Under the pieces are notes generated by a model. It saw nothing but the letters and a program-made list of their open reading frames with translations, searched no databases and was not told where the DNA came from. The position numbers and the translations under genes were made by a program. Below, piece by piece: positions 9,909 to 26,903 of a stretch of 64,000 bases of DNA (position 1 is its first letter; every line of letters begins with the position of its first letter). Source of the DNA: Bacillota bacterium (GTDB lineage: Bacteria; Bacillota; Sulfobacillia; DUSP01; JBFMCS01); contig JBFMCS010000004.1 in assembly GCA_040754315.1 (NCBI GenBank), forward strand, positions 7,390-71,389. The letters are read 5' to 3'.

Positions 9909-9910
9909 GG

Positions 9911-10579
9911 GTGAGGCGGTTGGATCTTGTTACCTATGCCCTGCCCAAGGGACGCCTCATGAATGGCACGTTGAGGCTTCTCCGGTCAGCGGGGGTGCCC
10001 TGCCCCCAGGAGGACGGGAGGCGTCTTTTACTGGAGATTCCCGAGAAGGGACTTAGGTTCCTTTTCTCCCGGCCCTCGGACGTTCCCGTCTACGTACAGT
10101 ATGGGGCGGCTGACCTCGGCATCTGCGGGAAGGATACCCTCATCGAGATGGGCCCCAAGGTATACGAGGTGCTGGACCTTGGGTTCGGGGCCGGGCGTTT
10201 TGTGCTGGCCACAGTGTCCGAATGGGTGGATCAGGGTTTTGACTGGACAAGGCCTGGGTTGAGGGTGGCCACCAAGTTCCCCAGGATCGCCTCGCTGTTC
10301 CTGGAGAGCCAGGGGGCCAGTCACCACATCATCAAGGTACACGGAGCGGCGGAGCTGGCACCCCGGGTGGGTTTAGCGGAAATGGTATTCGACATAACGG
10401 CCACAGGGAAGACCCTGGCGGAAAACGGCCTCAGGGTGGTGGCCAACGCCGGCACCACAACTGCCAGGCTGGTGGCGAACCCTGCCAGCTACAAGGTGAA
10501 GGCCCGCGAGCTGGGGGACGTCATCGCGAGGGTAAAGGGGTTTATCCAGAGCGAGGGTCACACGCTGGCCGGGCTTTGA
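9911..10579 (+). CDS. hisG: ATP phosphoribosyltransferase, short form
   Basis: It has the LPKGRL motif and HisG-family layout, is ~222 aa, and starts with GTG. Confidence 0.9.
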   Translation: MRRLDLVTYALPKGRLMNGTLRLLRSAGVPCPQEDGRRLLLEIPEKGLRFLFSRPSDVPVYVQYGAADLGICGKDTLIEMGPKVYEVLDLGFGAGRFVLATVSEWVDQGFDWTRPGLRVATKFPRIASLFLESQGASHHIIKVHGAAELAPRVGLAEMVFDITATGKTLAENGLRVVANAGTTTARLVANPASYKVKARELGDVIARVKGFIQSEGHTLAGL

Positions 10580-10601
10580 TGAAGGCCATCGGGGAGAGGC
10601 G

Positions 10602-11189
10602 GTGAACCTGTTGCGCGAAGTGGAGCACAAGAGGACCACACGGGAGACGTCCATTCATCTCCGGATCAACCTGGACGGTAATGGCGAGTCCCGTGTTGAG
10701 GTTGGAGGCTTTCTCGGTCACATGCTGGATACCCTCTCAAGGCATGGCATGTTTGACCTCGAGCTCAAGGCCGAGGTGTTCCTTGACCCTGACGGGCACC
10801 ACACAGCAGAGGACCTTGGGATCGTACTGGGAGAGGCCATAAGGAGGTCTGTGGGCCAGGGCCAAGGCCTGTCCAGGTTCGGCCACTCGGTGGTGCCCAT
10901 GGACGATGCCCTGGTGGAGGTGGCCCTGGACCTGTCGGGAAGGTCCTACTGCAACTACGACCTGGGGCCTGTGGGGGACCTGGGGGTCAATGCGTTCTTA
11001 CGCGAGTTCTTCCTGGGTTTTTCCCGCAGGGCCGAGGCCACCATCCACCTGAGGAGGCTGGCGGGTCACGATGCACACCACGTGGGCGAGGCTGCCTTCA
11101 AGGCCTTTGGGCGGGCTCTCTCCCAGGCTGTCTCACCCGATCCCAGGCTCAGCGGGAGGGCGCTGTCAACCAAGGGCGTGCTGTCGTGA
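10602..11189 (+). CDS. hisB: Imidazoleglycerol-phosphate dehydratase
   Basis: It has the RTTRETSI, HHTAEDLGI and HLRRLAGHDAHH motifs of IGPD. Confidence 0.9.
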   Translation: MNLLREVEHKRTTRETSIHLRINLDGNGESRVEVGGFLGHMLDTLSRHGMFDLELKAEVFLDPDGHHTAEDLGIVLGEAIRRSVGQGQGLSRFGHSVVPMDDALVEVALDLSGRSYCNYDLGPVGDLGVNAFLREFFLGFSRRAEATIHLRRLAGHDAHHVGEAAFKAFGRALSQAVSPDPRLSGRALSTKGVLS

Positions 11190-11932
11190 ACATGCTGGTG
11201 CTGCCGGCCATTGACATTATGGGAGGCCAGTGCGTCCGGCTCCTGAAGGGCAGGCCGGAGGAGAGCAGGGTCTACCACCAAGATCCCCTGGACGCCGCCC
11301 TCCGGTGGGAGCAAGAAGGGGCCGGAGCCCTCCACCTGGTGGACCTGGATCGTGCCCTGGGAGGGAAGCCAAATTCCGATGCTGTCAGGCGCATCGTCGA
11401 CTCCGTGACGGTCCCCGTGCAGTTGGGGGGGGGCTTGAGGAGCAGGGAGGCGGTAAAGGAGGCGTTTGGGTCCGGGGTGTGGAGGGTCGTCATGGGCACC
11501 GCCGCGCTGAGGTCCAGGGACCTTCTTTGCTGGTGCCTGGACCGGTTCGGGGACAGGGTGGTAGTCGCCCTTGATCACAGGGAGGACCGGGTGGTGGTTT
11601 CCGGCTGGACCCAGGAGCACGGCCTCTCATTGAAGGAGGCTACTGAAACCCTGCTGGAGCAGGGGGTCAGGGAGGTACTGGCCACCGCGGTAGAACGGGA
11701 TGGCACCATGGAGGGTCCGGATCTTGCAGGCTTGGCCATCCTGGTACGCTCCGGGTTGAGGGTGATAGCATCGGGCGGTGTCACCAGGCTTGAAGACCTG
11801 CGGGACCTCGCGGGGCTGCCTAACCTGACCGGGGTTGTCATTGGAAGGGCTCTCTATGAAGGCGTTTTATCCCTGGGGGAGGTCCTTAGGGTATCCCGTG
11901 GTGAGGGGAGGCTTGATTGTGAGCGAGGTTGA
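11186..11932 (+). CDS. hisA: ProFAR isomerase (HisA)
   Basis: It has the [15 protein letters not shown]-terminus and the (beta/alpha)8 HisA/HisF fold signature. No hisH or hisF is adjacent. Confidence 0.8.
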
Positions 11933-12527
11933 ACAGGGGACACTTACCCCCGTGGTGGTACAGCACGCTATCACGGGACAGGTGCTCATGCTGGCCTATA
12001 CCAACGCTGAGCTCCTGGAGAGAACCGCCAGGGAAGGGCGTGTCTGGTTCTGGAGCAGGTCCAGGGGGGGGCCCTGGCTGAAGGGCGCTACCAGCGGGAA
12101 CTACCTGAACGTACAGTCCATCACAATGGACTGTGACCAGGACGCGGTACTGGTGGAGGTGACCCCTGAGGGGCCCGCATGCCATACAGGCAAGACCAGC
12201 TGCTTTCACAGGCCGGTTATGGGTAGTGCATCCCCCGGCATCCTCCTGAAGCTGGGCGGGGTAATCGAGAGCCGGGTGATGAAGAAGCCCGAGGGGTCCT
12301 ACACGGCAGCCCTGGCTGGGAAGGGACCGGAGGCCATACTGAGGAAGGTCTCGGAGGAAGCCTTTGAGGTAGTCCTGGCCGCCAAAGAGGAGGGAGCCCC
12401 GGGCTTGGTGTGGGAGGTTGCTGACCTCTGGTACCACTGCATGGTGCTGTTGAGCGTCTTGGGATACAAGGCCGAGGACGTCCTTGAGGAACTTGCCCGC
12501 AGGGCGAAGAGGGATGAACAAGGGTGA
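11913..12527 (+). CDS. hisI: Bifunctional phosphoribosyl-AMP cyclohydrolase / phosphoribosyl-ATP pyrophosphatase (HisIE)
   Basis: It has the HisI domain (LIPAVVQ-like [19 protein letters not shown]) followed by the HisE MazG-like domain. A TTG or GTG start after a GGAGG RBS is preferred over the ORF-track start, which overlaps hisA. Confidence 0.8.
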
Positions 12528-13036: not shown

Positions 13037-13525
13037 ATGTCACATCAGTGTGAGTGTCTGGAAACTCTCCTGGAGGAGAGTATCAAGCGGAATGGCCATG
13101 GGTTTGTGTCCATCCTTCAGGACATTCAAGAAGACTGCGGTTACTTGCCCGAGGATGCACTGAGGGCCCTTGCCAGGAAGACAGGGGTTCCCCTGAGTGA
13201 GATCTACCGCACAGCAACCTTCTACAACTACTTCTCACTTGTACCCCGCGGGAAGCACCAGGTAGTCGTATGCACAGGGACGACTTGTCACGTCCGCGGA
13301 GCCAAGCGGGTGTCCAGGGAGATCACAAAGAACCTGGGAATACGCGTGGGCGAGGTGACTGAGGATCGTGAGTTCTCACTAGAGTCTGTAAACTGCCTTG
13401 GATGCTGCGCCTTTGCTCCCGTGGTGGTGGTGGATGGCAGGCACTACGGTAACCTGACTCCTGACGAGGTGAAGAAGGTGTTAGACTCCGTCAAGCGAGA
13501 AGCCGTGACCGTTGGAGCCACATGA
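13037..13525 (+). CDS. NuoE/HydC-like thioredoxin-fold [2Fe-2S] protein (24-kDa subunit homolog)
   Basis: It has the C...C...CxxC pattern (CTGTTCHVRG...CLGCCAFAP) of the NuoE family. Confidence 0.8.
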   Translation: MSHQCECLETLLEESIKRNGHGFVSILQDIQEDCGYLPEDALRALARKTGVPLSEIYRTATFYNYFSLVPRGKHQVVVCTGTTCHVRGAKRVSREITKNLGIRVGEVTEDREFSLESVNCLGCCAFAPVVVVDGRHYGNLTPDEVKKVLDSVKREAVTVGAT

Positions 13526-13539
13526 AAGGAGAACCGTTG

Positions 13540-16500
13540 ATGAGCGTCACACCAAGAAGACTCTTGGCACCAGGCGACCTGGCTGAGTTGGCAGATTGCC
13601 TTAAGACTCGTCTAGATACTCGGAAACCCTGCGTGACGGTGTGTGGCGACACCGGCTGTACGGTTTGCGGCTCCTTGGGGCTTGCAGAGAGTTTCCGGAA
13701 CATCATCGACAAGAAGGGACTTAGTGACAAGGTTGACTTGAAGGTCACCGGATGTCTCGGCTTCTGTGAGCAGGCGCCAGCGGTCATGGCCATGCATGAT
13801 GAGGTCCTGTACTGCAAGGTGACCCCGGATGACGTGGAAGAATTGCTGGAGGCGATCATTGCTGGCAAAGTAGTGGATCGCCTGGTATATGCGGATCCCG
13901 TTACGGGTCGGATTATCCCCCGTGCCAGGGATATTCCCTTCTATAGCAGGCAAACACGCATGCTCCTGGAAGCCAATTGGCATACGAACCCCGTTGACAT
14001 CTACGACTACATTGCCAGGGGCGGGTACCACGCTCTTTCTCGCGTGCTGGCGGGAATGAACCCTGAAGAGGTTATCGCTATGATGAAAGAGGCATGCCTT
14101 CGGGGAAGAGGTGGAGCAGGGTTTCCCACTTGGCTGAAGTGGGATATCGCACGAAAGCAGCTCGAGAAGGAAAGATACATGATCTGTAATGCTGACGAGG
14201 GAGACCCAGGAGCCTTCATGGATCGTAGCATCCTGGAAGGTAACCCTCACGCGCTTTTGGAAGGGATGCTGATAGCAGGCTTCGCCATAGGATCGAGCAA
14301 TGGGATAATCTACGTAAGGGCAGAGTATCCCACTGCGGTAGCCAAGATCCAGCACGCTATCCAACAGTGCCAGGATCTTGGCCTTGTTGGGAAGGATATC
14401 CTCGGGTCTGGGTTTGATTTTGACCTGACCATAAGCAAAGGAGCTGGTGCCTTTGTTTGCGGTGAGGAGACAGCCCTGATTCGCGCCGCTGAGGGAGGAG
14501 TTGCCGAACCGCGACAGAAGCCTCCCTACCCTTCCGAATCGGGTTTCAAGGGCAAGCCCACTGTGATTAACAACGTGGAGACCCTGGCCAATGTTCCCAT
14601 CATCGTGGAGAGGGGGGCCGGCGCATACCGCAGTCTCGGGACGGAGAAATCAGGAGGCACGAAGATATTCTGCCTGGTGGGAAAGGTGCTCAATGCTGGG
14701 CTCATAGAGGTTTCCTTTGGGACCAGACTCGGTGATGTCATCTTCGACATTGGTGGCGGAACGAAGAAGGGGAAACGGTTTAAGGCAGTTCAAACCGGTG
14801 GCCCCTCTGGCGGGTGTCTCCCAGCGGACAAACTGAACCTTCATATAGATTTTGAAGAATTGGCTCTGGCGGGTTCCATCATTGGCTCGGGCGGCATGAT
14901 CATAATGGACGAGGATACCTGTATTGTGGATGTGACCCGCTATTTCCTGGGTTTTCTCAAGAGTGAATCCTGCGGAAAGTGCTTTTCCTGCCGTGTGGGA
15001 ATCGAGCGCATGCTTGAGATCGTGGACCGGATTGCTCAAGGCAGGGCAGTGGAGTCAGACCTGGATCTCCTTGAGGAATTAGCCCTCACCGTCAAGGATA
15101 CATCTCTATGCGGGCTCGGCCAGACAGCTCCAAACCCTGTTCTCAGCAGTCTCCGGTACTTCAGGGAGGAGTACCTGGAGCACATAAGACACAAGTTTTG
15201 CCGAGCGACGGTGTGTGAGTCCCTTTTCCGGTCCCCTTGCCAGAATTCGTGCCCCGCGGGTGTGGATGTGCCAATTTACGTCGACCAGATCAGGCATGGT
15301 GAGTTCATTGAAGCCTACGAGACAGTTCAAAAGAATAATCCCTTCCCTGTTGTCTGCGGGAGAGTGTGTCATCATCCCTGCGAGTCTAGGTGCCGGAGAG
15401 AGCAGATAGATAAGCCGGTAGCCATCAGGGCGTTGAAGCGCTTTGCCGCCGATTACGCCGTGAGTAATGGCCAAAGACCCGCGAGGGTTCCAGGCATTAA
15501 GAGCAGCAAGAAGGTAGCGGTCATCGGGGCTGGGCCAGCCGGGCTGACCGCTGCTTTCTATCTAGGCCGGAAAGGCCACCAGGTAACGGTATTCGAGTCC
15601 TCTCCGGTGCCCGGCGGCATGCTGGCCCTAGGGATCCCCGATTACCGGTTGCCCAAGGACTCTCTCAATGCTGACATCGAGGCCATCAGGAACTCAGGGG
15701 TCAAGATGAGGATGAACTCGGCGCTTGGCAGGGACTTCACTCTCCAAGACCTGAGGGAGGATGGTTACGAGGCCATATTCCTGGCCATAGGTGCCCATAA
15801 GGACAGGGATATGGGGATCCCCGGGGAGGGGCTGGAGGGTGTCCTCTCCAGCGTCGAATTCCTTCGGGCCGTCAATTTGGGGCATCAGGTGGACGTCGAC
15901 GGCAAAGCGGTGGCAGTCGTAGGGGGAGGAAACGCAGCCATTGACGCGGCCCGGGTTGCCCTGCGAAAGGGCGCTCGTGTGGTACACATACTTTACAGGC
16001 GCCGGCAGGAAGACATGCCAGCGATGAAAGAGGAGATCGCTGACGCACTGGCTGAGGGAATACACCTCACACAGTTGACTGCGCCAGTGCGAATACTGGG
16101 TGACGATAAGGTTAGGGCCATCGAGTGTGTCCGTATGGGACTGGGGGACTTCGACGAGACCGGAAGGAGGCGCCCGGTGGCGGAAGCAGGCACGGAGTTT
16201 CACCTTCCTGTGGATGTTGTTATCCGGGCCATCGGCCAGGCGCCGGATGTTCCAGATACTGTCCGCAAGACCGTGTCGATAGCTGGAAACGGGACGATTG
16301 CTGTTGACTCTCGTAGTCTCTCCACTCAGGTAGCGGGGGTGTTTGCCGGCGGTGATTGTGTTACAGGTCCAGCCATGGCCATTGATGCCATAGCCCAGGG
16401 CAGGATAGCAGCAGCCTCAATTGACAAGTACCTGGGGGGTGACGGTGTGCTGTGGGGAGATGACGAAGAGCCCGTACGCCAGTTCCGGTCGGAGATCATC

Positions 16501-16692
16501 CAGACTCCGCTGGATCGCTATGCTCCAGGGAAGATCCCGTTGAGTGAACGAATCAGGGGCTTCCGGGAGGTAGAAATGGCGTACTCCGAGGAAGTCGCGT
16601 GTAATGAGGCGTCCCGTTGCCTGCGGTGTGACGTGCAGCAAGATGACGAAGAAGAACAAGACAACCGGCACTCTTTGGCGGGAGCATCCTAG
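13540..16692 (+). CDS. Fusion protein: a thioredoxin-like 2Fe-2S domain, the NuoF/HydB (51-kDa) FMN/NADH module, a Cys-rich Fe-S linker, and a GltD/NfnB-like FAD/NAD(P)H pyridine-nucleotide-disulfide oxidoreductase domain
   Basis: The NuoF core carries GGAGFPT, the FMN site and the 4Fe-4S motif ESCGKCFSCRVG. A Cys-rich linker follows (CRATVCESLFRSPCQNSCPAG...VCGRVCHHPCESRC). The GltD-like Rossmann motifs VAVIGAGPAGL and VAVVGGGNAAIDAA come next. An ATG at 13540 after an AAGGAG RBS is the likely start. Confidence 0.8.
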   Translation: MSVTPRRLLAPGDLAELADCLKTRLDTRKPCVTVCGDTGCTVCGSLGLAESFRNIIDKKGLSDKVDLKVTGCLGFCEQAPAVMAMHDEVLYCKVTPDDVEELLEAIIAGKVVDRLVYADPVTGRIIPRARDIPFYSRQTRMLLEANWHTNPVDIYDYIARGGYHALSRVLAGMNPEEVIAMMKEACLRGRGGAGFPTWLKWDIARKQLEKERYMICNADEGDPGAFMDRSILEGNPHALLEGMLIAGFAIGSSNGIIYVRAEYPTAVAKIQHAIQQCQDLGLVGKDILGSGFDFDLTISKGAGAFVCGEETALIRAAEGGVAEPRQKPPYPSESGFKGKPTVINNVETLANVPIIVERGAGAYRSLGTEKSGGTKIFCLVGKVLNAGLIEVSFGTRLGDVIFDIGGGTKKGKRFKAVQTGGPSGGCLPADKLNLHIDFEELALAGSIIGSGGMIIMDEDTCIVDVTRYFLGFLKSESCGKCFSCRVGIERMLEIVDRIAQGRAVESDLDLLEELALTVKDTSLCGLGQTAPNPVLSSLRYFREEYLEHIRHKFCRATVCESLFRSPCQNSCPAGVDVPIYVDQIRHGEFIEAYETVQKNNPFPVVCGRVCHHPCESRCRREQIDKPVAIRALKRFAADYAVSNGQRPARVPGIKSSKKVAVIGAGPAGLTAAFYLGRKGHQVTVFESSPVPGGMLALGIPDYRLPKDSLNADIEAIRNSGVKMRMNSALGRDFTLQDLREDGYEAIFLAIGAHKDRDMGIPGEGLEGVLSSVEFLRAVNLGHQVDVDGKAVAVVGGGNAAIDAARVALRKGARVVHILYRRRQEDMPAMKEEIADALAEGIHLTQLTAPVRILGDDKVRAIECVRMGLGDFDETGRRRPVAEAGTEFHLPVDVVIRAIGQAPDVPDTVRKTVSIAGNGTIAVDSRSLSTQVAGVFAGGDCVTGPAMAIDAIAQGRIAAASIDKYLGGDGVLWGDDEEPVRQFRSEIIQTPLDRYAPGKIPLSERIRGFREVEMAYSEEVACNEASRCLRCDVQQDDEEEQDNRHSLAGAS

Positions 16693-16710: not shown

Positions 16711-17415
16711 ATGCTGGAAATAACGCTGAACGGTCTTAGGGTTGGTGTGGATGAGGGCATGACGATACTGGAGGCAGCTCGGTTCTATGGGATCGAGATA
16801 CCGACCCTCTGTTACCTTGATGGCCTGAGCCCATACGGGGCATGCCGGCTTTGCCTGGTGGAGGTAGGCCCGCCGGAGAGGCCGAGATTAGTCTCATCCT
16901 GCATTCACAGGGTAGAAGAGGGCCTTGTGGTCAGGACGCACTCTGAACGAGTGATGATGAGGAGGAAGATGCTTCTGGAACTGTACCTGGCGACCTGCCC
17001 CTCATCCAAGACCATCCAGGATCTCGCCTCAAAGCATCACGTTACTGAGGTCCGCTTCAAGCCTCGGAACGAGGACTGCATTCTCTGCGGGCTTTGTGTC
17101 AGAATGTGCGCCGAACAGATGCAGGGCAAGGCCATCGATTTTGGTCACCGGGGAGCAGATCGAAGAGTCCTGACGCCGTTTGACAAGAAATCGGAGGATT
17201 GCCGGTTATGCGGTGGTTGCATGTACGTCTGTCCTGCGTGCCAAGCCAGGTGCCAAGGCCCGCAAGAGAGCGAGCCTGTGTGCAATGCCTGTCTCAACCT
17301 GCCTGTGGCATGCCTGGAACGTTTCGAGCATGCCATGTGCTATATGGACCCGTGCGTTGCCTGTGAGAGACAGCCCACAGAGATCGTTACGACCGAAAGG
17401 AGAAGCGACCCATGA
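16711..17415 (+). CDS. NuoG/HndD N-terminal-like Fe-S protein (2Fe-2S ferredoxin fold plus 4Fe-4S motifs). It has no catalytic domain.
   Basis: It has the TLCYLDGLSPYGACRLCLVEV 2Fe-2S motif and downstream CxxCxxC clusters. It is only 234 aa. Confidence 0.7.
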   Translation: MLEITLNGLRVGVDEGMTILEAARFYGIEIPTLCYLDGLSPYGACRLCLVEVGPPERPRLVSSCIHRVEEGLVVRTHSERVMMRRKMLLELYLATCPSSKTIQDLASKHHVTEVRFKPRNEDCILCGLCVRMCAEQMQGKAIDFGHRGADRRVLTPFDKKSEDCRLCGGCMYVCPACQARCQGPQESEPVCNACLNLPVACLERFEHAMCYMDPCVACERQPTEIVTTERRSDP

Positions 17416-18992
17416 GTTTTTCTCGAATCAACGCAAGTGCTGCAAGCCTGACCAAGAATCGCACCGTGGATTCGATCAGTTCTCTTAGCGGCATGTGCGC
17501 CACATGCATAGATGGGTGCATTGGGATGTGCGAGGTGGGCAAGTCCGCCTACCGGGGTCATGAGGTTATATACCCTCAACCGTTTGGGCTTATCAGCACG
17601 GCCTCGGAGAAGAACTACCCCTTGGACTACTCTCACTTCTCCATCATGGGCACCACGGTGGGCGCCGTTGGAGTGGAACCCGACAGCGACAAGGCCATCT
17701 TCCCCTCCGTTAACGTGGAGGCACGCATGGGTAAGGGAGAGGGCATTAAAACCAGGTTGCCTCTGGTTGTCTCGGGAATGGGTTCCACACGTATCGCCAG
17801 TGTCAACTGGGAGGGCCTGGCCATCGGGGCAGCCCTGGCCGGTATCGTTGTCACCATAGGCGAGAACATCTGCGGCATGGACCCCCAGTCCGAGATCCGT
17901 AACGGGAAGGTGGCAAGGAGCCCAGAGCTGGCCAGGCGTGTCCGGCTCTTCAAAGACTGGCAGGTGGACGGCTACGGCGATGTGGTGCTCCAGGCCAATG
18001 TCGAAGACACCAGCCTCGGAGTGCAGGAGTTCGGCATCAGGGAACTCGGCGTGACCAGCGTGGAGCTGAAGTGGGGCCAGGGGGCGAAGGACATCGGTGG
18101 CGAGGTAAAGATCTCCGACCTGGAAAAGGCCAAGATGCTCAAGAGCCGGGGATACGTGGTGCTGCCCGATCCGGAGGATCCCAATGTCATTGAGGGGTTC
18201 AAGCGGGGTGCCTTCAAGGAGTTCGAGCGCCACTCCAGGGTCGGCATGGTTGAGCCTGAGGGCTTCATCAGGCGGGTGCAGGATCTGAGGAAGGCCGGGG
18301 CCAAGTGCGTGCTTCTGAAGACGGGGGCCTTCAGGCCCGCGGATATGGCCCGGGCGGTCAAGTACTGCTCCATGGCGGGGGTGGATGTACTCACGGTGGA
18401 CGGAGCTGGGGGCGGGACAGGAATGAGCCCCTGGCGCATGATGAACGAGTGGGGTGTGCCACCGGTAGAGATGCATTCTCTAGCGCGGGAGTTCTGTGAC
18501 AGGCTGGCGGCAAAGGGCGAGTACGTGCCGCACCTGGTGTTTGGCGGGGGCTTCGTCATGGAGGACCAGATGTTCAAGGGCCTTGCCCTGGGGGCCCCAT
18601 ACGTGAAGGCCATTGGAATGGCCCGGGCGCCACTGGCCGCGGCCATGGTGGGCAAGACAATTGGCAGGAGCATCGACGAGGGCCGTCTCCCCGTGTATGT
18701 TGAACGTTTCGGGAGGTCCAAGGAGGAGGTCTTCGTCACGGCCACGGAGCTGAGGCAGCTAGTGGGCAACGACCGGTTTGCGGAACTCCCTGCGGGTGCC
18801 ATTGGACTCTTCACGTTCTGCGAGAGGCTTTCCCAAGGCCTCAAGCAGCTTATGGCAGGCAGCAGGAAGTTTGCCTTGGAGTACGTGGACCGGTCCGACA
18901 TCGCTGCATTGACCAGGCACGCCAGTGAGGTCAGCGGGATCGACTTCGTCATGGAGGCAGACAGGAACGAGATAGAGGAGATCCTTGGATAA
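17412..18992 (+). CDS. Glutamate-synthase (GltB) FMN-binding central-domain family protein with an N-terminal Cys-rich cluster. This is the stand-alone archaeal-like GltS domain 2.
   Basis: The 526-aa protein has the N-terminal CATCIDGCIGMCEVGK motif. It has the TIM-barrel FMN domain signature of PF01645-type proteins (GAGGGTG, LVFGGG). Confidence 0.75.
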   Translation: MSFSRINASAASLTKNRTVDSISSLSGMCATCIDGCIGMCEVGKSAYRGHEVIYPQPFGLISTASEKNYPLDYSHFSIMGTTVGAVGVEPDSDKAIFPSVNVEARMGKGEGIKTRLPLVVSGMGSTRIASVNWEGLAIGAALAGIVVTIGENICGMDPQSEIRNGKVARSPELARRVRLFKDWQVDGYGDVVLQANVEDTSLGVQEFGIRELGVTSVELKWGQGAKDIGGEVKISDLEKAKMLKSRGYVVLPDPEDPNVIEGFKRGAFKEFERHSRVGMVEPEGFIRRVQDLRKAGAKCVLLKTGAFRPADMARAVKYCSMAGVDVLTVDGAGGGTGMSPWRMMNEWGVPPVEMHSLAREFCDRLAAKGEYVPHLVFGGGFVMEDQMFKGLALGAPYVKAIGMARAPLAAAMVGKTIGRSIDEGRLPVYVERFGRSKEEVFVTATELRQLVGNDRFAELPAGAIGLFTFCERLSQGLKQLMAGSRKFALEYVDRSDIAALTRHASEVSGIDFVMEADRNEIEEILG

Positions 18993-19042
18993 CCTCAGGA
19001 TTGGGCCGAGTAGGGGAGAGACCTGAAAGGGGGACTCACACA

Positions 19043-19543
19043 ATGGCTAGCATCCTGGAGTATGCAGGAATCAAGGTGCCGGCGGGAGAGATGCTGAAGG
19101 AGGCTCTGATATACTGCCAGGCCAAGACTGGCAGGAAAGATGCCCTGGAACTAATCAGGAAGGGTGAGCCAACGGCAACAGGCTACTTCCGGTACAGGCT
19201 TGCCCAGGAGATCGGGTCCCTTCTGGGACAGGCGGATAATACCATCACCCAGGTATACCTGTACCCGGAGGAGGCCCTCGAGGAGAATGCTCCGCCAACG
19301 GTACCCCTGACACTGGTGGTGTGCACCGAAAGGCGCACGGCGGCCCTGGACGCTGTGGTCGAGAGTCTGGATGGCGACCTCTTGGCGGAGTACCGGAAGA
19401 TGGTGGAGCCAGCAGCGGACGGAGTGACTTCCTTCTCAAACATATGTCTGGTAGAACAAGAGGAATTATACCAGCGCAAGGGGCTCAGTGCCATAATAGG
19501 CTCGCTGAGTACACCCAGCTTCTGCGTTTGGCGGCGCCATTAA
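19043..19543 (+). CDS. Hypothetical protein, co-oriented and tightly spaced with the oxidoreductase genes
   Basis: The ORF runs from MASILEYAGIKVP with no recognisable domain. The start was chosen at the internal ATG. Confidence 0.35.
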   Translation: MASILEYAGIKVPAGEMLKEALIYCQAKTGRKDALELIRKGEPTATGYFRYRLAQEIGSLLGQADNTITQVYLYPEEALEENAPPTVPLTLVVCTERRTAALDAVVESLDGDLLAEYRKMVEPAADGVTSFSNICLVEQEELYQRKGLSAIIGSLSTPSFCVWRRH

Positions 19544-19573: not shown

Positions 19574-21001
19574 TTGCCTGCGATGGCCATGTCATCGCAG
19601 GATTTTCTTTTCCCGGCTAGAAGTGTAGGCAGTGGACTCCACGGTAAGGGTGTGATGAGAGTGGGCAACGGGCAGGGATGGGCCCGCCCCTGTGATGAAG
19701 GGAAGTACCAGGCCTTTCACGCGTGCCGTGACTTCCGCGCCTGCGGTGTCGCGGGGCTCTGCCGCAGCCTCATTGCTGACTTCAACACGGATACCTTCAT
19801 TCCCCAGGCTGTCTTGCTTCTCACAAGACACCTGCCCTTCGACGCCGGTGTGCTCTTTCTATACGATGACACCCTGGACAGGCTGGTCCCGGCATCGTGT
19901 TACGGTTACGAGATGGATGCCCTGGAGCACCTGGCGCTTGGGGACTCCATCATGTACGAGGTTTTTGACACCGGCAAGCCGAGGGTCTCCCGTTCGAGCA
20001 AGCGTATCCGCGAGATCCAGGCCCAGCTCACCAGGAGCGGGAAGGGTAGTCTTCCCATGTCCTCCTGCATGGTGTGTGTCCCGTTGCGCCTGGATTCCGT
20101 TGCCCTGGGGTGCGTGGTGCTGGAGAGCCGCTCTGCCCAGGTGGTAGTAGGCCGGCGTCTCCTGTCCTGCGTCATCCATGCCCTGGAACTCCTGGTGCTC
20201 TTTGTTCACAAGGCTCAAACTATGCGGCAGAACCAGGAGAAGGGCTTCTCGGAGCTGGTTTCCACCCTCTCCCATGAGCTCAGGACCCCCCTGACGTGTA
20301 TCAAGGGCTACACTACCACGCTTCTGGAGAACCCCGAGCTGGACCACGTCAACGGCCGGGAGTTCCTGGAGATAATAGACAGTGAGAGCGATACCATGAA
20401 TAACCTCATCAAGGACCTGATGGACTCCTCTCTAATCGAGGCGGGGTTCCTGCGGATAAGGAAACAGCCGATGCTGATGACGAAGATCGTACATAAGGCC
20501 GTGGAGAACGCCAGCGTTCAGACGAGGAAGCACAGGTTTGTCGTGAGCATCTCCCAGGACTTCCCGGTCTTGGAGGGGGACCCGGACAGGATGAAGCAGG
20601 TCCTGGACAATATCCTGGACAATGCCGTGAAGTACTCCCCTGAAGGGGGCTTGATAGTAATCAATGGAAGGGTTGTGGGCAGGGAAGCCATTATCAGCAT
20701 AGCCGACCAGGGCATGGGGATTGCCCCAGAGGACCTGAACAGGCTCTTCGAGAAGTTCTTCAGGGTCAAGTCGGAGATGGCCGGGACGGGCCTGGGGCTG
20801 CCCGTGGCCCATGAGATCATCGAAAAACACGGGGGACGGATATGGGCAGAGAGTGCGCCCGGGAAGGGGAGCACCTTCTTCTTCGCGCTGCCCCTCACAG
20901 ACATTTCCCGTAGGAACGGGGGGCCGTCCCAGGTGCCGGATACTGCAAGGGGAACGAGGGAGGGCCTAGATGAAGAAGCACCTGATTCTAGTAGTCGATG
21001 A
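19574..21001 (+). CDS. Cytoplasmic GAF-domain sensor histidine kinase (KdpD C-terminal-like)
   Basis: A GAF region is followed by an HisKA H-box (LSHELRTPL) and an HATPase_c domain (N, G1, G2 boxes). There are no TM segments. It overlaps the response-regulator gene. Confidence 0.75.
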   Translation: MPAMAMSSQDFLFPARSVGSGLHGKGVMRVGNGQGWARPCDEGKYQAFHACRDFRACGVAGLCRSLIADFNTDTFIPQAVLLLTRHLPFDAGVLFLYDDTLDRLVPASCYGYEMDALEHLALGDSIMYEVFDTGKPRVSRSSKRIREIQAQLTRSGKGSLPMSSCMVCVPLRLDSVALGCVVLESRSAQVVVGRRLLSCVIHALELLVLFVHKAQTMRQNQEKGFSELVSTLSHELRTPLTCIKGYTTTLLENPELDHVNGREFLEIIDSESDTMNNLIKDLMDSSLIEAGFLRIRKQPMLMTKIVHKAVENASVQTRKHRFVVSISQDFPVLEGDPDRMKQVLDNILDNAVKYSPEGGLIVINGRVVGREAIISIADQGMGIAPEDLNRLFEKFFRVKSEMAGTGLGLPVAHEIIEKHGGRIWAESAPGKGSTFFFALPLTDISRRNGGPSQVPDTARGTREGLDEEAPDSSSR

Positions 21002-21719
21002 TGAACCCCGTATACTCAGGCTCATCCAGACCAACCTGAAGCTGGCGGGGTACGCTGTGCTCTGCGCCGGAGACGGGCCCTCGGGATTGGAGATCGTGGA
21101 GAGGGAGAACCCCGACTTGGTTATCCTGGATATTCTCCTGGTGGGTCCAATCGATGGCTACGCGGTATGCGAGCGCATTAGAGAGTTCTCCGATGTTCCC
21201 GTACTGATGCTTACCGCCAAGAGCCAGGACGCGGACAAGATAAGGGGTTTTGACGCTGGGGCAGATGACTACCTGACCAAACCCTTCAGTTCCCAGGAGT
21301 TGCTGGCCAGGGTCAAGGCCATCCTGAGGCGAAGCGGTGAGGGTTCCAAGGTCAAGGGACCCTCGACACTGGTCTGCGGGGAGATCTCCATCAACTTCGC
21401 CCAGGCCAGGATAACCACTGAGCATGCCGGCACGGTGGATCTCACCCCCACCGAGTTCAAGCTCCTCTCGGAGCTGGCTAAGCACCCCAATGAGATCGTG
21501 CTGCACGAAGACTTGCTCACCAGGGTCTGGGGGAGCGAGTACAGAAACGAGGTGGACTACCTCAGGGCCTACATCTGGTACCTCCGGAGGAAACTTGAGA
21601 GGGACCCCTCGCGTCCCCGGTATCTCCTGTCCAGGCAGGGGCTGGGTTACATGCTGGCATGCCCGGGGGATCCGGAGAGTGCTCCGGAGCAGGGAGCCCC
21701 CGGGGAGCCGCCCGGCTAG
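20970..21719 (+). CDS. OmpR-family response regulator (KdpE-like)
   Basis: It has a receiver domain (DDE...D...K) and a winged-helix DNA-binding domain. Confidence 0.85.
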   Translation: MKKHLILVVDDEPRILRLIQTNLKLAGYAVLCAGDGPSGLEIVERENPDLVILDILLVGPIDGYAVCERIREFSDVPVLMLTAKSQDADKIRGFDAGADDYLTKPFSSQELLARVKAILRRSGEGSKVKGPSTLVCGEISINFAQARITTEHAGTVDLTPTEFKLLSELAKHPNEIVLHEDLLTRVWGSEYRNEVDYLRAYIWYLRRKLERDPSRPRYLLSRQGLGYMLACPGDPESAPEQGAPGEPPG

Positions 21720-21749: not shown

Positions 21750-23210
21750 TCAGTTGACCCGGGCTGTGCGGGTCCTGCCCACTAGGTCCACACACCTGTG
21801 GGGGAAGAACTCCCTGAAGATCCGGTAGTAGAGGAGTTCCTCTTTGCTGGAGGGGACGAAGCAGCCCGCCTCACGGGACGCCCGCCTCAGGTCCGAGTCA
21901 CTGACCCTCCTCTCGGCCAGCACCGTCATGAGGCCGCTTGTGCCTGAGCCCAGGTAGAACTTCTCCTTCTTCCTCCACACCACCTCCCGGGGAAGCGCCC
22001 CTAGATAGGCCTTCCTGAGAAACCACTTCTCCGTGGCGTTGCCACCCTCTCGCTTGAGCTTCCACTCCAGGGGGAGGGAGACTGAGAAGTCCACCACATC
22101 CAGGTCCATGAAGGGCAGGGCCGGTTCGAGGCCGTGGGCGGCGTTCATGCGGTCCACCCTCTGGAACGCCCCTGAGTGGCCCTGGGTGAGAAGTATCCGG
22201 AGCTCCTTCCTGACGTCATTCTTCCTCTCCAGCGCCTTGAGGTAGTGGTACCCCGCGAAGAGCTCGTCACCGCCCTCACCGCAGAACACCATCTCCATCC
22301 CTGCTTTCCTGGCGAGGCGCGCGGCCATGTAGTTGGCCACCGAACTCCTCACCAGTGGAGCATCGAAGGACTCCAGGTGGTAAATGACATTAGGAAGGCA
22401 CTCCTCTATGTGCCCCAGGCCGTACAGGAAGCGATGGTGCTCTAGCTTCAAGGCCTGGGCCACCAGGGCTGCGGAACTCACGTCACTGCAATCCCGGGTT
22501 CCCACGACGAAGGTGGGCACCCCAGGTTCGAGGCGGGCCACCGCCGCCGAAACGATGCTGGAGTCAACCCCCCCGCTGAGGAGCACGCCCGCCTTCTTCC
22601 CAGAGTCAAGGGACCTTCTGACGGCGGTCTCCATCCTCTGACGGAAGCCCGCCAGTGCCTGGTCCAGTGGAGGCAGGGTCTCCAGTTCCGTGTCGTCCAG
22701 GGAGTAAAAGGGGGTAAGGTGGCCGGGGACTCCCACATGGCCAGGGGGAAAGGTGCGCACGGTCCCGGAAAAGCCCGCAAAGGCCTTGATCTCCGAGGCC
22801 GCCAGCATGCCGCCGGGTGTCACGGCGTAGTAGAGGGGTTTGAGGCCAAAGGGGTCCCTGGCCATGACAACACCCTCGCCGGTGATGAACAGCATGGCGA
22901 AGGGCCCGGACAGGCTCTCCAGGAACTCCGGCCCTCCCCGGCGGTAACCTTCACTGATCTCCTCCGGGCGTAACACCCGGTTCGCGGGGATCTCCCGGGA
23001 CCATTCGCTATCGAGCCCCTGCTGGGACAGGCAGGCCATCCCATCTACATAAACGCCTGCCCTGTCGTCTTGAGACTCGTCGTAGCCGGTGACGAAGGGG
23101 CCCACTTCCCTCAGGCAGCCACTACCTTCTCCCCGATGGCTCATCCGCTCCAGCATGGACAGGACCCTGGCCTGGGCGCCAGATCCGCTGGCCACTGCTA
23201 TTCTTGACAT
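21750..23210 (-). CDS. Asparagine-synthase (AsnB) family amidotransferase lacking the N-terminal Cys nucleophile
   Basis: The C-terminal AsnB synthetase domain has the SGGVDSS PP-loop. The N-terminus is MSRIAVASG instead of MCG. The start was chosen at the ATG at 23210 with a GAGGTGAT RBS rather than the longer ORF-track start. Confidence 0.75.
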   Translation of the reverse strand: MSRIAVASGSGAQARVLSMLERMSHRGEGSGCLREVGPFVTGYDESQDDRAGVYVDGMACLSQQGLDSEWSREIPANRVLRPEEISEGYRRGGPEFLESLSGPFAMLFITGEGVVMARDPFGLKPLYYAVTPGGMLAASEIKAFAGFSGTVRTFPPGHVGVPGHLTPFYSLDDTELETLPPLDQALAGFRQRMETAVRRSLDSGKKAGVLLSGGVDSSIVSAAVARLEPGVPTFVVGTRDCSDVSSAALVAQALKLEHHRFLYGLGHIEECLPNVIYHLESFDAPLVRSSVANYMAARLARKAGMEMVFCGEGGDELFAGYHYLKALERKNDVRKELRILLTQGHSGAFQRVDRMNAAHGLEPALPFMDLDVVDFSVSLPLEWKLKREGGNATEKWFLRKAYLGALPREVVWRKKEKFYLGSGTSGLMTVLAERRVSDSDLRRASREAGCFVPSSKEELLYYRIFREFFPHRCVDLVGRTRTARVN

Positions 23211-23388
23211 AACATCACCTCGTATTAGACTTCTGTGCTGACCGCCAGGCTCATGACAGCCTTCTTCTCCAAGCCTGCAGATACCTTCCTCTTTCGGGAA
23301 ATTGGTTGCCGTTTCCAAGCCGCCCTCCCTGGCATGGCCCATTGGTGGTGTGAATAGGCATATCTATGCGTATCGAGGAGGGAGGCCA

Positions 23389-26058
23389 TTGAAGGCTTGG
23401 CACACCCTGGCCCTGGCGGAACTAGTGCGGGCCCTGGATACCGATCTTGAGCAGGGTCTGGCCCAGAGGATAGCGGGCGCGCGCATGGCGTCCACGGGGG
23501 CCAACACCATTAGCGCTACCAAGGCCCCCAGCGTAGTGGACCTTTTCGTGCGGCAGTTCAAGGACTTTATGGTTCTCACCCTGGTGGCAGCGACGGTGGT
23601 GGCCTCCCTGGTGGGCGAGACCACCGATGCCTTGGCCATCATTGCCATCCTATTCCTCAACGCCGTCCTTGGCAGTGTCCAGGAGTACCGGGCTGAGAGG
23701 GCCCTCATGTCCCTGAGGGCGCTTTCGGCCCCCACAGCCAGGGTAGTGCGGGATGGCCTTGCCCAACGCCTGGGGGCGGACACCCTTGTTCCAGGGGATG
23801 TCATCCTCCTGGAGGCTGGAGACAGGGTTCCCGCCGATGCTAGGGTGGTGGAGGTCCAGGCCATGGAGGCAGACGAGTCTGCCCTTACCGGGGAGGCCTT
23901 CGCGGTGTCCAAGGCCCCCCTTGACGGCCTGGAACGGGATCTTGCCCTGGGTGACCGTGCCAACATGGTCTACGCAGGTACAGCGATAACCCGGGGCAGG
24001 GGGCGGGCGGTTGTAGTGGCCACCGGCATGGATACCCAGATGGGTCACATCGCCCACATGCTCCAGGAGGCTGGGGCCGGCAAGACACCCCTGCAGAGAC
24101 GCCTGGCCCACCTGGGCGGGCACCTGGTGGTACTGTGCGCCGCGGTGTGTCTGGCCGTGGGGATCCTGGGCATGCTCAGGGGCGAAGCCCCTGCCCGCAT
24201 GCTCCTGACCGGTGTGAGCCTGGCCGTGGCCGCTATACCTGAGGGGCTCCCTGCCGTGGTGACCGTGGCCTTGGCCCTGGGGGTGCAACGAATGGCCAGG
24301 GGGAATGCCATCGTCCGGCGCCTGCCTGCCGTTGAGACCCTGGGGTGCGCTACGGTGGTTTGCTCAGATAAGACTGGCACGCTGACACAGAACCGGATGG
24401 TCCTGGCGGAGACATACACCTTGGGCCCCAGGACCTGGGTTCCGGCAGGGGGGCCGCGGGAACCTAGCGTGGAGAGGCTGCTTCTCCTGGGGGCGCTGTG
24501 TAACAACGCCAGCATTTCCCGGGGCTTCGCCGGGGTCTTTGCCCGCGGGGCTGAGGGTGATCCCACAGAGGTCGCCCTCCTGGATGCAGCGTGGGACGCC
24601 AGGGTGTATGCCAGGGCCCGGCGGTACCGGCGTGTTTCAGAGGTGCCCTTTGACGCCGAGCGCAGGCTCATGTCGGTCCTGGTACGGTCCGGGGGGGAGA
24701 TCATGGTTGTGCTAAAGGGCGCCCCCGAGGCTGTTGTGCCACTGTGCTCGGACTTTGGGCCTGCGGGATCAAGGGAGGAAGCCTTGGAGGCTGCCGCGGC
24801 CATGGCCTCCCGGGGCCTCAGGGTGCTTGCCCTGGCTGAACGTCGCCTTGAGCCGGGGGATCCTTTGGTGATAGTCGAGGATTCCCTGATCCTGACGGGA
24901 CTTGTGGGCATCGCGGATCCCCCAAGGCCCGAGGCGGTACGGGCTGTCAGGGAACTGGCTCGCGCAGGCATCAGGACTGTGATGGTAACCGGGGATCACC
25001 CCAACACGGCGGTGGCCATCGCCTCCCAGATGGGAATACTCGCGCCAGGGGGCCGGTCACTATCGGGCATGGAAATGGATTCCATGCCTGACGCGCTCCT
25101 GGAGAGGGTCTCGGCGAATGTCATGGTGTATGCTAGGGTCTCTCCCGGGCACAAGATGCGGATAATCAGGGCGCTGAAGGCTCAGGGGCACGTGGTGGCA
25201 ATGACGGGGGATGGCGTGAATGACGCCCCCGCGGTCAAGGCGGCAGATATTGGTATCGCGATGGGCAGGTGCGGAACCGACGTTACCCGGGATGCCGCGG
25301 ATATGGTCCTGGCCGACGACAACTTCGCCACAATCGCCGTGGCGGTGAGGGAAGGCCGGGCCATCTACGACAACATCCGCAAGTTCGTCCGTTACCTCCT
25401 GGCATGTAACATTGGGGAGGTCCTCACCATGTTCATCGCGGCGATCCTGGGACTTCCTCTTCCCCTGATACCTGTGCAGATCCTCTGGGTGAACCTGGCC
25501 ACCGACGGCTTGCCTGCCATAGCACTGGGACTGGAGCCCCCGGAGGAGGGTGTCATGTCTAGGCCACCCAGGCCTGCGAACGAGGGCTTCCTTGGCCGTG
25601 GGCTCAGCATAAAGATAGTGGTGAGAGGCATACTTATTGGCGTGACAACGCTGGGAGCGTTTGCCTGGAGGCTCCAGGCTGGCGTGAGCCTGGAGGAGGC
25701 CAGGACTTGGGCCTTCGCCGTACTGGTGGCCTGCCAGCTGTGGCACGTGTTTGATTGCCGCTCGGAGAAGGGTGGGCCCATTTCGGTTCCCTTGTCCCGG
25801 AACCCCTTCCTTGCGGTGTCCGTGGCGCTTTCCTGGGTCATGCTGTCGCTAGCCGTCTACCACCCCTTCCTCCAGGGGCTGTTCTGCACCGTACCCCTGT
25901 CATGGGGGGACTGGGCAATAGTGGTGGCGGTGTCAAGCGCCGGGAGTATCCTCACGGCTTTGTGGGCGAGGGCTTGCCAGGGGGAAGGAATTCCTGCCAA
26001 ACCGGCGAATGGTACAGGATACGCAACCCCCGGGGGGTGCAGGCGCTGGAGTTCGTGA
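23389..26058 (+). CDS. P-type Ca2+-transporting ATPase (P2A/P2B type, YloB-like)
   Basis: It has the DKTGTLT phosphorylation motif, TGDGVNDAPA, and 10-TM P2-type architecture with a cation_ATPase_N domain. A TTG at 23389 after a GGAGGAGGGAGG RBS is the likely start. Confidence 0.85.
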   Translation: MKAWHTLALAELVRALDTDLEQGLAQRIAGARMASTGANTISATKAPSVVDLFVRQFKDFMVLTLVAATVVASLVGETTDALAIIAILFLNAVLGSVQEYRAERALMSLRALSAPTARVVRDGLAQRLGADTLVPGDVILLEAGDRVPADARVVEVQAMEADESALTGEAFAVSKAPLDGLERDLALGDRANMVYAGTAITRGRGRAVVVATGMDTQMGHIAHMLQEAGAGKTPLQRRLAHLGGHLVVLCAAVCLAVGILGMLRGEAPARMLLTGVSLAVAAIPEGLPAVVTVALALGVQRMARGNAIVRRLPAVETLGCATVVCSDKTGTLTQNRMVLAETYTLGPRTWVPAGGPREPSVERLLLLGALCNNASISRGFAGVFARGAEGDPTEVALLDAAWDARVYARARRYRRVSEVPFDAERRLMSVLVRSGGEIMVVLKGAPEAVVPLCSDFGPAGSREEALEAAAAMASRGLRVLALAERRLEPGDPLVIVEDSLILTGLVGIADPPRPEAVRAVRELARAGIRTVMVTGDHPNTAVAIASQMGILAPGGRSLSGMEMDSMPDALLERVSANVMVYARVSPGHKMRIIRALKAQGHVVAMTGDGVNDAPAVKAADIGIAMGRCGTDVTRDAADMVLADDNFATIAVAVREGRAIYDNIRKFVRYLLACNIGEVLTMFIAAILGLPLPLIPVQILWVNLATDGLPAIALGLEPPEEGVMSRPPRPANEGFLGRGLSIKIVVRGILIGVTTLGAFAWRLQAGVSLEEARTWAFAVLVACQLWHVFDCRSEKGGPISVPLSRNPFLAVSVALSWVMLSLAVYHPFLQGLFCTVPLSWGDWAIVVAVSSAGSILTALWARACQGEGIPAKPANGTGYATPGGCRRWSS

Positions 26059-26900: not shown

Positions 26901-26903
26901 CCG

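Follow-up and report, generated by a model that had tools for sequence, protein, structure and literature searches.

Within a stretch of 64,000 nucleotides (nt) from a Bacillota bacterium (GenBank assembly GCA_040754315.1, contig JBFMCS010000004.1, positions 7,390 to 71,389 of the forward strand; hereafter the window, with positions counted from its first letter), we analysed the open reading frame (ORF) at 17412-18992, hereafter the target. It encodes a flavin mononucleotide (FMN) protein of 526 amino acids (aa), distantly related to the FMN domain of glutamate synthase (GltS), and stands last in a row of four genes with the following features.

13037 to 13525, forward strand: BfuC/NuoE/HoxE-like subunit, 162 aa, thioredoxin-like with a [2Fe-2S] site (PF01257, 159 bits).
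13522 to 16692, forward strand: NuoF and GltD fusion, 1056 aa, between the NuoE-like and HoxU-like genes.
13522 to 15201, forward strand: BfuB/HydB/NuoF-like part of the fusion (aa 1-560), with Complex1_51K, SLBB, NADH_4Fe-4S and 2Fe-2S_thioredx domains.
15202 to 16692, forward strand: GltD/NfnL-like part of the fusion (aa 561-1056), with Fer4_20 (two [4Fe-4S]) and Pyr_redox_2 (flavin adenine dinucleotide (FAD)/NADP(H)).
16711 to 17415, forward strand: short Fe-S subunit of 234 aa resembling BfuA, HoxU and the N-terminus of NuoG, with Fer2_4 and Fer4_7.
17412 to 18992, forward strand: the target, an FMN TIM-barrel protein of 526 aa with an ATG start, distant kin of the GltS FMN domain.
17496 to 17531, forward strand: N-terminal motif C29xxC32xxxC36xxxC40 of the target (CATCIDGCIGMC, aa 29-40).
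18060 to 18113, forward strand: catalytic-lysine loop of the target, E218-L-K-W-G-Q-G-A-K226-D-I-G-G-E231-V-K-I, located through invariant residues, motif mapping and hhalign.

The four genes are tightly packed, with 4-nt overlaps and one 18-nt gap, and form one translationally coupled unit. The stop codon of the NuoE-like gene overlaps the start of nuoF, and the start codon of the target shares 4 nt (ATGA) with the end of the HoxU-like gene. A Shine-Dalgarno sequence, GAAAGGAGA at 17395-17403, provides a strong ribosome-binding site 8 nt before the target ATG.

Glu_synthase (PF01645) is the only Pfam family that the target matches, with 45 bits against a cutoff of 20.4. The match is partial (aa 280-408 of the target, positions 186-308 of the 369 of the profile), and the same family is the sole one found across seven members of the target family (27-64 bits). 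NCBIfam models gave no match to the target protein. An hhalign comparison based on a shallow alignment of 20 sequences aligned only the DGGTGASP motif of GltS (probability 48%), and became informative once divergent members had been added: the enriched family profile then aligned with the GltS FMN domain over 245 columns (aa 153-451) with a probability of 92.4% and an E-value of 6.8e-8. GltS residues were anchored on the A. brasilense numbering via a search of the PDB. In this alignment, ELKWGQGAK226DIGGE231 of the target corresponds to EIKxAQGAKPGEGGQ of GltS, K226 and E231 standing at Lys972 and Gln978 (Synechocystis numbering), with one residue deleted in the target loop relative to the GltS sequence QGAKPGEGG. 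Likewise, the sequence DGAGGGTGMSP, invariant in the family, aligns with the FMN-phosphate motif DGGTGASP of GltS. Three motifs are thus common to the family and GltS: E-[LI]-K-x-x-QGAK, DGxGGTGxSP and GG..D...A..LGA.

The [3Fe-4S] cluster of GltS, in contrast, has no counterpart in the barrel: at the position of its Cx5Cx4C ligands (Cys1102/1108/1113, A. brasilense), the aligned target segment, GMARAPLAAAMVGKTIG, contains no cysteine. The target carries instead an N-terminal segment of about 100 aa with the motif CxxCxxxCxxxC. Its four cysteines, C29, C32, C36 and C40, are all invariant in the 20-sequence alignment and are the sole invariant cysteines of the target family. The motif lies within the first 80 aa in 77 of 80 full-length homologs, while about 4e-5 occurrences per protein would be expected by chance from composition, and it is kept in divergent members sharing 38-50% identity as well. 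We propose that these cysteines bind a putative Fe-S cluster serving as the electron entry that replaces the [3Fe-4S] cluster of GltS. By sequence, the target is a remote member of the GltS FMN-domain superfamily, one that no longer has the cluster site of GltS and has acquired a four-cysteine module at its N-terminus. An AlphaFold2 (AF2) monomer model (mean per-residue confidence, pLDDT, 71.6; overall fold confidence, pTM, 0.78) contains a confident TIM barrel at about aa 100-480.

These results agree with what the original prediction, made from the window alone, had claimed of the protein itself: a stand-alone 526-aa relative of GltS domain 2, whose ORF is exact at 17412-18992, with an extra N-terminal CxxCxxxCxxxC motif. 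It had also noted that neither glutaminase nor GXGXG domains are encoded nearby, and we found no GATase_2 or GXGXG domain in the annotated window ORFs from 4.7 to 30.4 kb. The sole glutamine-amidotransferase domain near the target belongs to an ordinary asparagine synthase on the opposite strand (21750-23342).

The target family is large. A scan of genomes found it in at least 593 species, nearly all of them uncultured anaerobes and nearly all bacterial. A word-indexed search with the target gave 8000 matches, the best 120 of which are 66-92% identical to it and 522-547 aa long (save one entry of 489 aa); these 120 come from Clostridia/Bacillota, Aminicenantes, Planctomycetota, Acidobacteriota, Spirochaetota, Bacteroidota and Thermoplasmata archaea. 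Among 1.8 billion representatives at 50% identity, only 1058 matched at E<=1e-3, and canonical GltB was therefore not reached. One distant member found by this representative search, P0260 (800 aa), is fused to an N-terminal F420-binding domain of the FrhB/Fsr-N type with a ferredoxin-like dicluster, and its loop, GQGAKPGMGGEV, is more GltS-like than that of the target. A 'putative F420-dependent glutamate synthase' has been proposed and is still hypothetical (PMC3448663); the FrhB fusion of P0260 matches this idea, which makes P0260 a candidate for such an enzyme.

The genomic partners of the target are strictly conserved. By tblastn on 87 loci, each of the 83 with DNA upstream of the target carries the HoxU-like gene directly before it, about 700 nt away and in the same orientation; the NuoF-like and NuoE-like genes precede the HoxU-like gene wherever the contig extends that far. 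Precomputed Pfam labels confirmed the four-gene order in bacterial and Thermoplasmata loci. In a Zixibacteria locus (L013), a glutamate dehydrogenase gene (661-1941) lies directly upstream of the hoxU-like gene, at the usual place of nuoF; only 660 bp of contig precede it, and nuoEF may be elsewhere or further upstream. Of the four subunits, the FMN protein varies least: its identity across phyla and domains is 66-92%, as compared with 49-67% for the NuoF core, 48-79% for the HoxU-like subunit and 44-66% for the NuoE-like subunit. The view of the original prediction that such proteins are known mostly from archaea and have ill-defined bacterial partners does not survive these findings: the family is almost entirely bacterial and always stands directly after the same three genes.

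These three partners point to a Bfu-type core. The NuoE-like subunit has its best NCBIfam matches with HoxE and NuoE, and 98% of 61 homologs keep its ligands C79, C84, C120 and C124. The BfuB-like part of the fusion protein is predicted to hold an N-terminal [2Fe-2S] domain, for which the cysteine pairs C41x4C46 and C78x3C82 are present, an NADH/FMN site and an N3-type [4Fe-4S] cluster. Its best PDB matches are all bifurcating BfuB/HydB proteins, which scored 560-640 bits as compared with about 345 for NuoF of complex I: 7t2r_B (642 bits), 7q4v_B, 9bov_B, 9mqx_B, 8a6t_B, 8oh5_B, 9n5u_B and 7p5h_B. The enzymes concerned are NiFe-Bfu (7T2R), HydABC (7Q4V/8A6T/7P5H), NfnABC (9BOV/9N5U), Stn (8OH5) and WorABCSL (9MQX). 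The NuoF part is clearly closer to proven bifurcating BfuB proteins than to the non-bifurcating NuoF, FdsB or HoxF, which shows it to be a HydB-type subunit. In the HoxU-like subunit there are a [2Fe-2S] site and two [4Fe-4S] sites (two CxxCxxCxxxC motifs), while the His-ligated [4Fe-4S] motif typical of the N-termini of HydA, NuoG and HoxU was not found in it. Its best PDB match is WorA (9mqx_A, 247 aa). Specific to the family is a C-terminal set of eight cysteines (C177, C181, C191, C194, C201, C210, C215 and C218), each conserved in at least 93% of 69 homologs; their number would suffice to ligate one or two more clusters or a zinc site.

The GltD part of the fusion matches PRK12771 and PRK12814 of NCBIfam with about 500 bits. 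In the PDB, it is most similar to the NADPH domain of NfnA in Nfn-Bfu (9bov_A, 404 bits; 9n5u_A, 388 bits), followed by StnC (348 bits) and NfnL (330/299 bits). This part stands in place of the ferredoxin-like C-terminal domain of BfuB, with its clusters B3 and B4, which is missing in the window protein and replaced by Fer4_20 and Pyr_redox_2. The coupling of the target to a NuoEF-GltD module, as originally predicted, therefore holds in the window; GltD is nonetheless no constant partner, and the prediction had not singled out the HoxU-like gene. Among 63 loci in which BfuB could be typed, 35 encode the NuoF-GltD fusion and 28 an unfused protein, a HydB-type polypeptide of about 620 aa with a C-terminal ferredoxin-like Fer4 dicluster (two [4Fe-4S]) and thus a full BfuB architecture. 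The idea that the fusion is the defining partner of the target was rejected on this ground, all the more as the closest relatives of the window are among the unfused loci.

The two forms of BfuB are interspersed among related FMN subunits, the nearest neighbour (75-87% identity) being of the other type in 12 of the 63 loci. The nearest relative of the window, L088, illustrates this. Its FMN protein is 92% identical to the target, but its nuoF is unfused (about 1.8 kb). At the DNA level, the flanks (his operon on one side; hoxU, target, orf, histidine kinase, response regulator and asnB on the other) are 85-86% identical, whereas the nuoE-nuoF(-gltD) segment (13037-16692 of the window, 4131-6453 of L088) has only 66% nucleotide identity. 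This difference suggests that the input module was swapped by recombination in the lineage of the window or of L088. The nuoF gene of L088 was called as two ORFs (491 and 94 aa), which may reflect a frameshift or faulty assembly. The domain that is replaced in the window carries B3 and B4 in the Tsi Nfn-Bfu structures, where it is fed low-potential electrons by the mobile cluster C1 and reduces ferredoxin. Since GltD sits at the place of this ferredoxin-like domain, the window variant would use NADP(H) where its sister uses ferredoxin.

We considered the possibility that the four proteins make up a non-bifurcating NAD(P)H oxidoreductase or electron-transfer complex, in which the FMN protein would be a plain terminal reductase or a redox partner (e.g. 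of oxidative-stress proteins), with no energy coupling. The replacement of the B3/B4 domain in the window variant is in line with this, and several enzymes containing NuoEF do not bifurcate (PMC9304861). There is also a precedent among stand-alone GltS-like proteins, the C. difficile protein CD0828, in which a GltS-like protein with a rubredoxin domain aids resistance to H2O2 and has no proven substrate (PMC11980386). Yet the NuoF part is closer to proven BfuB proteins and keeps the N-terminal [2Fe-2S] domain, and the unfused members have the full BfuB architecture. Furthermore, no oxidative-stress genes were recurrent in the neighbourhoods of the clustered loci described below, and CD0828, which is encoded in an oxidative-stress operon, keeps the Cx5Cx4C [3Fe-4S] motif besides its rubredoxin domain (PMC11980386), unlike the target family. 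We regard this explanation as distinctly unlikely, and favour a core of the Bfu type, which is the probable one.

Comparison with known Bfu enzymes supports such a classification and also sets the target cluster apart. The closest parallel is WorABCSL of Acetomicrobium mobile (Bfu type 2; 9MQX; PMC12318220), which likewise combines a BfuBC core with a short BfuA (247 aa, as compared with 234 aa here). In that enzyme, the C-terminal Cys-rich adaptor of WorA docks a separate catalytic module, WorSL (PMC12318220). The catalytic module is a tungstopterin protein, WorSL, in the one case and an FMN TIM barrel in the other; the extension of BfuA is a four-cysteine zinc finger there and contains eight conserved cysteines here, and the window BfuB carries GltD. 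The Nfn-Bfu/StnABC transhydrogenases (PMC7483475, PMC10482914, PMC12018979, PMC11829005) share NuoE-like, HydB-like and GltD/NfnL-like modules with the window. They have three subunits, however, and in them GltD forms part of the NuoG-like BfuA/StnC polypeptide and supplies the mid-potential branch, whereas the window has GltD as a C-terminal extension of BfuB, a BfuA of only 234 aa, and a strictly conserved fourth subunit, the FMN protein. The Bfu catalogue distinguishes hydrogenase, Fdh, Nfn, F420, WOR, Bam, CODH, POR, Mbh, Nuo and rubrerythrin types (PMC9304861); its main text and the text part of its supplement mention no glutamate-synthase-like member. No description of the target cluster was found in the literature searched, which mostly did not cover subscription journals, so that a report may have been missed. 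We classify the cluster as encoding a probable Bfu-type enzyme in which both the catalytic module and the fusion of BfuB are new.

How the target relates to GltS itself bears on its function. Its similarity to the FMN domain of GltS (PF01645; 1EA0, 1OFD) comprises the FMN TIM barrel, the lysine loop and the FMN-phosphate motif, and the operons of about half of the loci contain a GltD-type NADPH/FAD/2x[4Fe-4S] module, as in GltS. Unlike GltS, the target protein and its surroundings lack amidotransferase, central and GXGXG domains, and the target has no Cx5Cx4C motif, an extra N-terminal segment, a 21-aa EFERHSR insertion and obligate partners of the HydBC type. It resembles in part the stand-alone GltS-like proteins of about 500 aa (CD0828, MJ1351-type of M. 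jannaschii, putative F420-dependent GltS; PMC11980386, PMC3448663), which also combine a separate FMN barrel with an N-terminal metal or redox module as the presumed point of electron entry.

The original prediction had interpreted the target as part of a split GltS of archaeal style. In its full form, this interpretation would make the target a piece of a glutamine-dependent enzyme whose amidotransferase and GXGXG subunits are encoded elsewhere and for which NuoEF-GltD serves as the NAD(P)H input. A PF01645 score above the gathering score, the presence in the operon of GltD, which has the fold of the classical GltS beta-subunit, and the public annotation of target-type proteins as 'FMN-binding glutamate synthase family protein' all speak for it. 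Archaeal stand-alone GltS-like proteins, though, sit with amidotransferase and GXGXG genes. No such gene appeared in about 90 neighbourhoods, which comprise the recurrent neighbour clusters of 81 loci, 8 Pfam-labelled loci and the window flanks. In addition, the [3Fe-4S] cysteine triad is missing, the similarity to GltS is remote, the GltD domain is absent from 28 of the 63 typed loci, and the strictly conserved partners are of the HydBC type, subunits that to our knowledge occur in no known GltS. We consider a split GltS highly improbable. The conserved HydBC/Bfu-type partners shift the question from a 'split GOGAT' (glutamate synthase) to a new Bfu-type enzyme.

Clues to the substrate came from the neighbourhoods. 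The neighbouring ORFs of 81 non-redundant loci were clustered without prior assumptions and the clusters were then annotated. Glutamate dehydrogenase (GDH) is encoded within 10 kb of the core in 12 loci from at least 8 phyla (11 of the 81 clustered loci plus L089), the groups concerned being Thermoplasmata, Zixibacteria, KSB1, Coatesbacteria, Ca. Scalindua, Acidobacteriota, Acetothermia and Bacteroidota. In 11 of these 12 loci, the gene has the orientation of the core and lies either within it or immediately or nearly next to it; its products match curated glutamate dehydrogenase models at 1e-130 to 1e-150. By a rough estimate, a single-copy gene would be found by chance within 10 kb in less than 1% of cases per locus. 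Glutamine synthetase (GS), a class I/II aminotransferase and a flavoprotein resembling fumarate reductase and aspartate oxidase are each encoded near the core in 4 loci. Sigma-54 response regulators of the NtrC/AtoC type occur in at least 25 loci and histidine kinases in 24. The NtrC-type regulators and the GS neighbours weakly favour the assimilatory direction.

Two further proteins recur in these neighbourhoods. One is a small Cys-rich protein of about 100-150 aa, whose gene separates nuoE from that of the sigma-54 regulator in at least 13 loci. It has two repeated modules, C..C....C...C[DE]E[FY], and no Pfam match, and may serve either as a regulator or as a dedicated partner for redox reactions or metal binding. 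Examples are the following.

L022, 4823 to 5176: small Cys-rich protein.
L074, 6144 to 6491: small Cys-rich protein.
L090, 4754 to 5065: small Cys-rich protein.

The other group consists of large proteins with only a PPDK_N domain (phosphoenolpyruvate-utilising, ATP-grasp-like), encoded directly downstream in at least 7 loci (L037, L040, L078, L084, L085, L089 and L091).

Taken together, the GDH, GS and regulator neighbours, the F420 fusion of P0260 and the GltS-type lysine loop make 2-oxoglutarate/2-iminoglutarate-glutamate the most likely couple; since no glutaminase is present, the nitrogen donor would be free ammonia. That the four proteins form a four-subunit complex is very likely. It is about an even bet that the target is the substrate-converting FMN subunit of a four-subunit cytoplasmic Fe-S flavoprotein complex, built on a HydBC/BfuBC module and probably interconverting 2-oxoglutarate plus NH3 and glutamate. 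Taken as a claim in its own right, the identification of glutamate/2-oxoglutarate/NH3 as the substrate is tentative.

In such a complex, the FMN site would convert 2-oxoglutarate and free ammonia, through 2-iminoglutarate, to glutamate or catalyse the reverse reaction, without a glutaminase. Electrons would be exchanged between the FMN of the barrel and the N-terminal four-cysteine site of the target, and then pass through the C-terminal cysteine clusters of the short BfuA and its [4Fe-4S] and [2Fe-2S] clusters to cluster B1 and the FMN of BfuB, where NAD(H) would react. The cysteine motif of the target and the eight-cysteine extension of BfuA would thus wire the FMN of the barrel to BfuBC in the way that WorA wires WorSL in WorABCSL. 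A second branch would lead from cluster C1 of the NuoE-like subunit to the [4Fe-4S] pair of GltD, its FAD and NADP(H), or, in the sister variant, from C1 via B3/B4 to ferredoxin. In one direction, this would amount to a redox-driven, ATP-independent assimilation of ammonia at the expense of NADH and NADPH or reduced ferredoxin. The opposite direction, a ferredoxin- or NADPH-linked oxidation of glutamate, is equally possible. We estimate from published equilibrium constants that the standard potential (E0') of the 2-oxoglutarate+NH4+/glutamate couple is about -130 mV, and that its potential may fall to about -250 to -310 mV when NH4+ is sub-millimolar and the glutamate/2-oxoglutarate ratio is high. 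With these values, co-oxidation of NADH and NADPH or ferredoxin would assimilate ammonia at concentrations where an NADH-dependent GDH fails and, unlike GS, would spend no ATP in doing so. Run in reverse, the reaction would pull the oxidation of glutamate.

Several points weigh against this proposal. By our own estimate, the potential of the glutamate couple lies above those of the mid-potential third substrates that proven Bfu enzymes use. Bifurcation by the GltD-fused variant is in doubt, because the canonical ferredoxin-reducing domain is absent. About 85% of the loci have no GDH nearby, and where GDH is adjacent, this suits a role in the same pathway as well as catalysis of the same reaction. 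Residues 1-96 of the target, including the cysteine motif, have a pLDDT below 50 in the AF2 monomer model, presumably because this segment depends on a cofactor or a partner. No biochemical data for any member of the family were found in the searchable literature. Finally, the kinship with GltS is remote: phmmer and family-HMM (hidden Markov model) searches missed GltS structures, and the PDB sequence searches with the target protein and with the family profile gave neither GltS nor any other natural homolog of the barrel at more than a weak level. These searches and the one with P0260 returned designed TIM barrels and weak matches to isopentenyl-diphosphate isomerase type 2 (IDI-2) and flavocytochrome b2. 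In structure comparison, Foldseek ranked L-lactate oxidase, glycolate oxidase, flavocytochrome b2 and IDI-2 first, not GltS. At the rim of the barrel, a 21-residue insertion with the invariant sequence EFERHSR takes the place of PPPHHD in GltS, and the position of GltS Arg992 is only approximately aligned, the invariant R246 being two residues away. The substrate pocket may therefore differ from that of GltS.

These last observations raise the possibility that the same four-subunit Bfu-type complex acts on another substrate, either a 2-hydroxy/2-oxo acid (lactate/pyruvate, 2-hydroxyglutarate/2-oxoglutarate or glycolate/glyoxylate) or another imine. Such an enzyme would parallel the confurcating lactate dehydrogenase, though built on a Bfu module. 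The Foldseek ranking (E 5e-8 to 1e-6 for the top matches), the invariant E-R-H-S-R residues of the family-specific insertion at the rim of the active site and the remote kinship with GltS are compatible with this, and 2-oxoglutarate is also a product of the often adjacent GDH. The Foldseek matches are weak, however (TM 0.38/0.54, root-mean-square deviation 7-9 A), and generic for FMN TIM barrels. The FMN_dh family (PF01070) had no match to the target even at E up to 10 and was marginal in two divergent members, whereas PF01645 matches all members, and the GltS-specific E-[LI]-K-x-x-QGAK loop is invariant. GS and the NtrC-type regulators, moreover, point to nitrogen rather than hydroxy-acid metabolism. 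We judge another substrate, and with it the analogy to lactate dehydrogenase, to be a rather unlikely alternative, and retain the interconversion of 2-oxoglutarate and glutamate as our working proposal.

The surroundings of the four genes in the window contain the following further features.

19001 to 19543, forward strand: ORF of 180 aa, likely the fifth gene of the transcription unit, without a Pfam or NCBIfam match.
19577 to 19611, forward strand: terminator-like GC-rich hairpin with 11 pairs and a T-rich tail, from a consensus scan only.
19574 to 21719, forward strand: GAF-domain histidine kinase and OmpR-type response regulator, from Pfam.

An HMM of the 180-aa ORF found it only in L001, L008, L009, L010 and L088, always directly after the target. 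Its role as a general fifth subunit was rejected, as it is confined to the Bacillota-like lineage of the window. Downstream of the target, a terminator-like site appears only past this small ORF, in keeping with a single operon. The hairpin overlaps the called TTG start of the ORF at 19574, so that the histidine kinase probably starts further downstream. The order of histidine kinase and response regulator after the operon is also found in L001, L008, L009 and L088; in other phyla, by contrast, a histidine kinase and a sigma-54 regulator of the NtrC/AtoC type lie upstream of the core. A sigma-70 promoter scan performed at chance level, and an Rfam scan of the window detected no riboswitch or leader upstream of the operon. 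The only Rfam match in the window is a Moco/Tuco riboswitch 35 kb away (53329-53467, forward strand; 57 bits, gathering score 36).

A histidine biosynthesis operon (hisZ-like, hisG, hisB, hisA and hisIE; 8943-12527, forward strand) lies directly upstream of the cluster. Downstream, the region 21750-28085 contains asnB (21750-23342, reverse strand), a P-type cation ATPase gene, dapF and a class I/II aminotransferase gene. A tungsten-type aldehyde:ferredoxin oxidoreductase (AFOR_N and AFOR_C) is encoded at 4670-6517 on the reverse strand, consistent with a ferredoxin-based anaerobic metabolism in the host. The window has a G+C content of 57-64% and a persistently positive GC skew.

The window copy is one ordinary member of a large family, and the interest lies in the family and in the exchange of modules. 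The cluster occurs across dozens of phyla, in at least 593 species, some archaea included. That it represents a new and widespread Bfu class ('Glt-Bfu'), coupling the interconversion of 2-oxoglutarate/ammonia and glutamate to NADH and ferredoxin, or to NADPH in the GltD-fused form, is a speculative proposal that we consider somewhat doubtful. If it is true, a highly conserved, uncharacterised cluster of anaerobes would link the NADH, NADPH and ferredoxin pools to central nitrogen metabolism, and a flavin TIM barrel would be added to the catalytic modules of the Bfu family. Uncultured anaerobes would gain either an ATP-independent, high-affinity assimilation of ammonia or a ferredoxin-assisted oxidation of glutamate. 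The swapped C-terminal module of BfuB would then show that the low-potential branch of Bfu enzymes can be hard-wired to NADP(H), and the two forms of BfuB offer a natural experiment on the destination of low-potential Bfu electrons. The findings also correct annotation: genomes in which the only 'glutamate synthase family protein' is of the target type should not be scored as GOGAT-positive.

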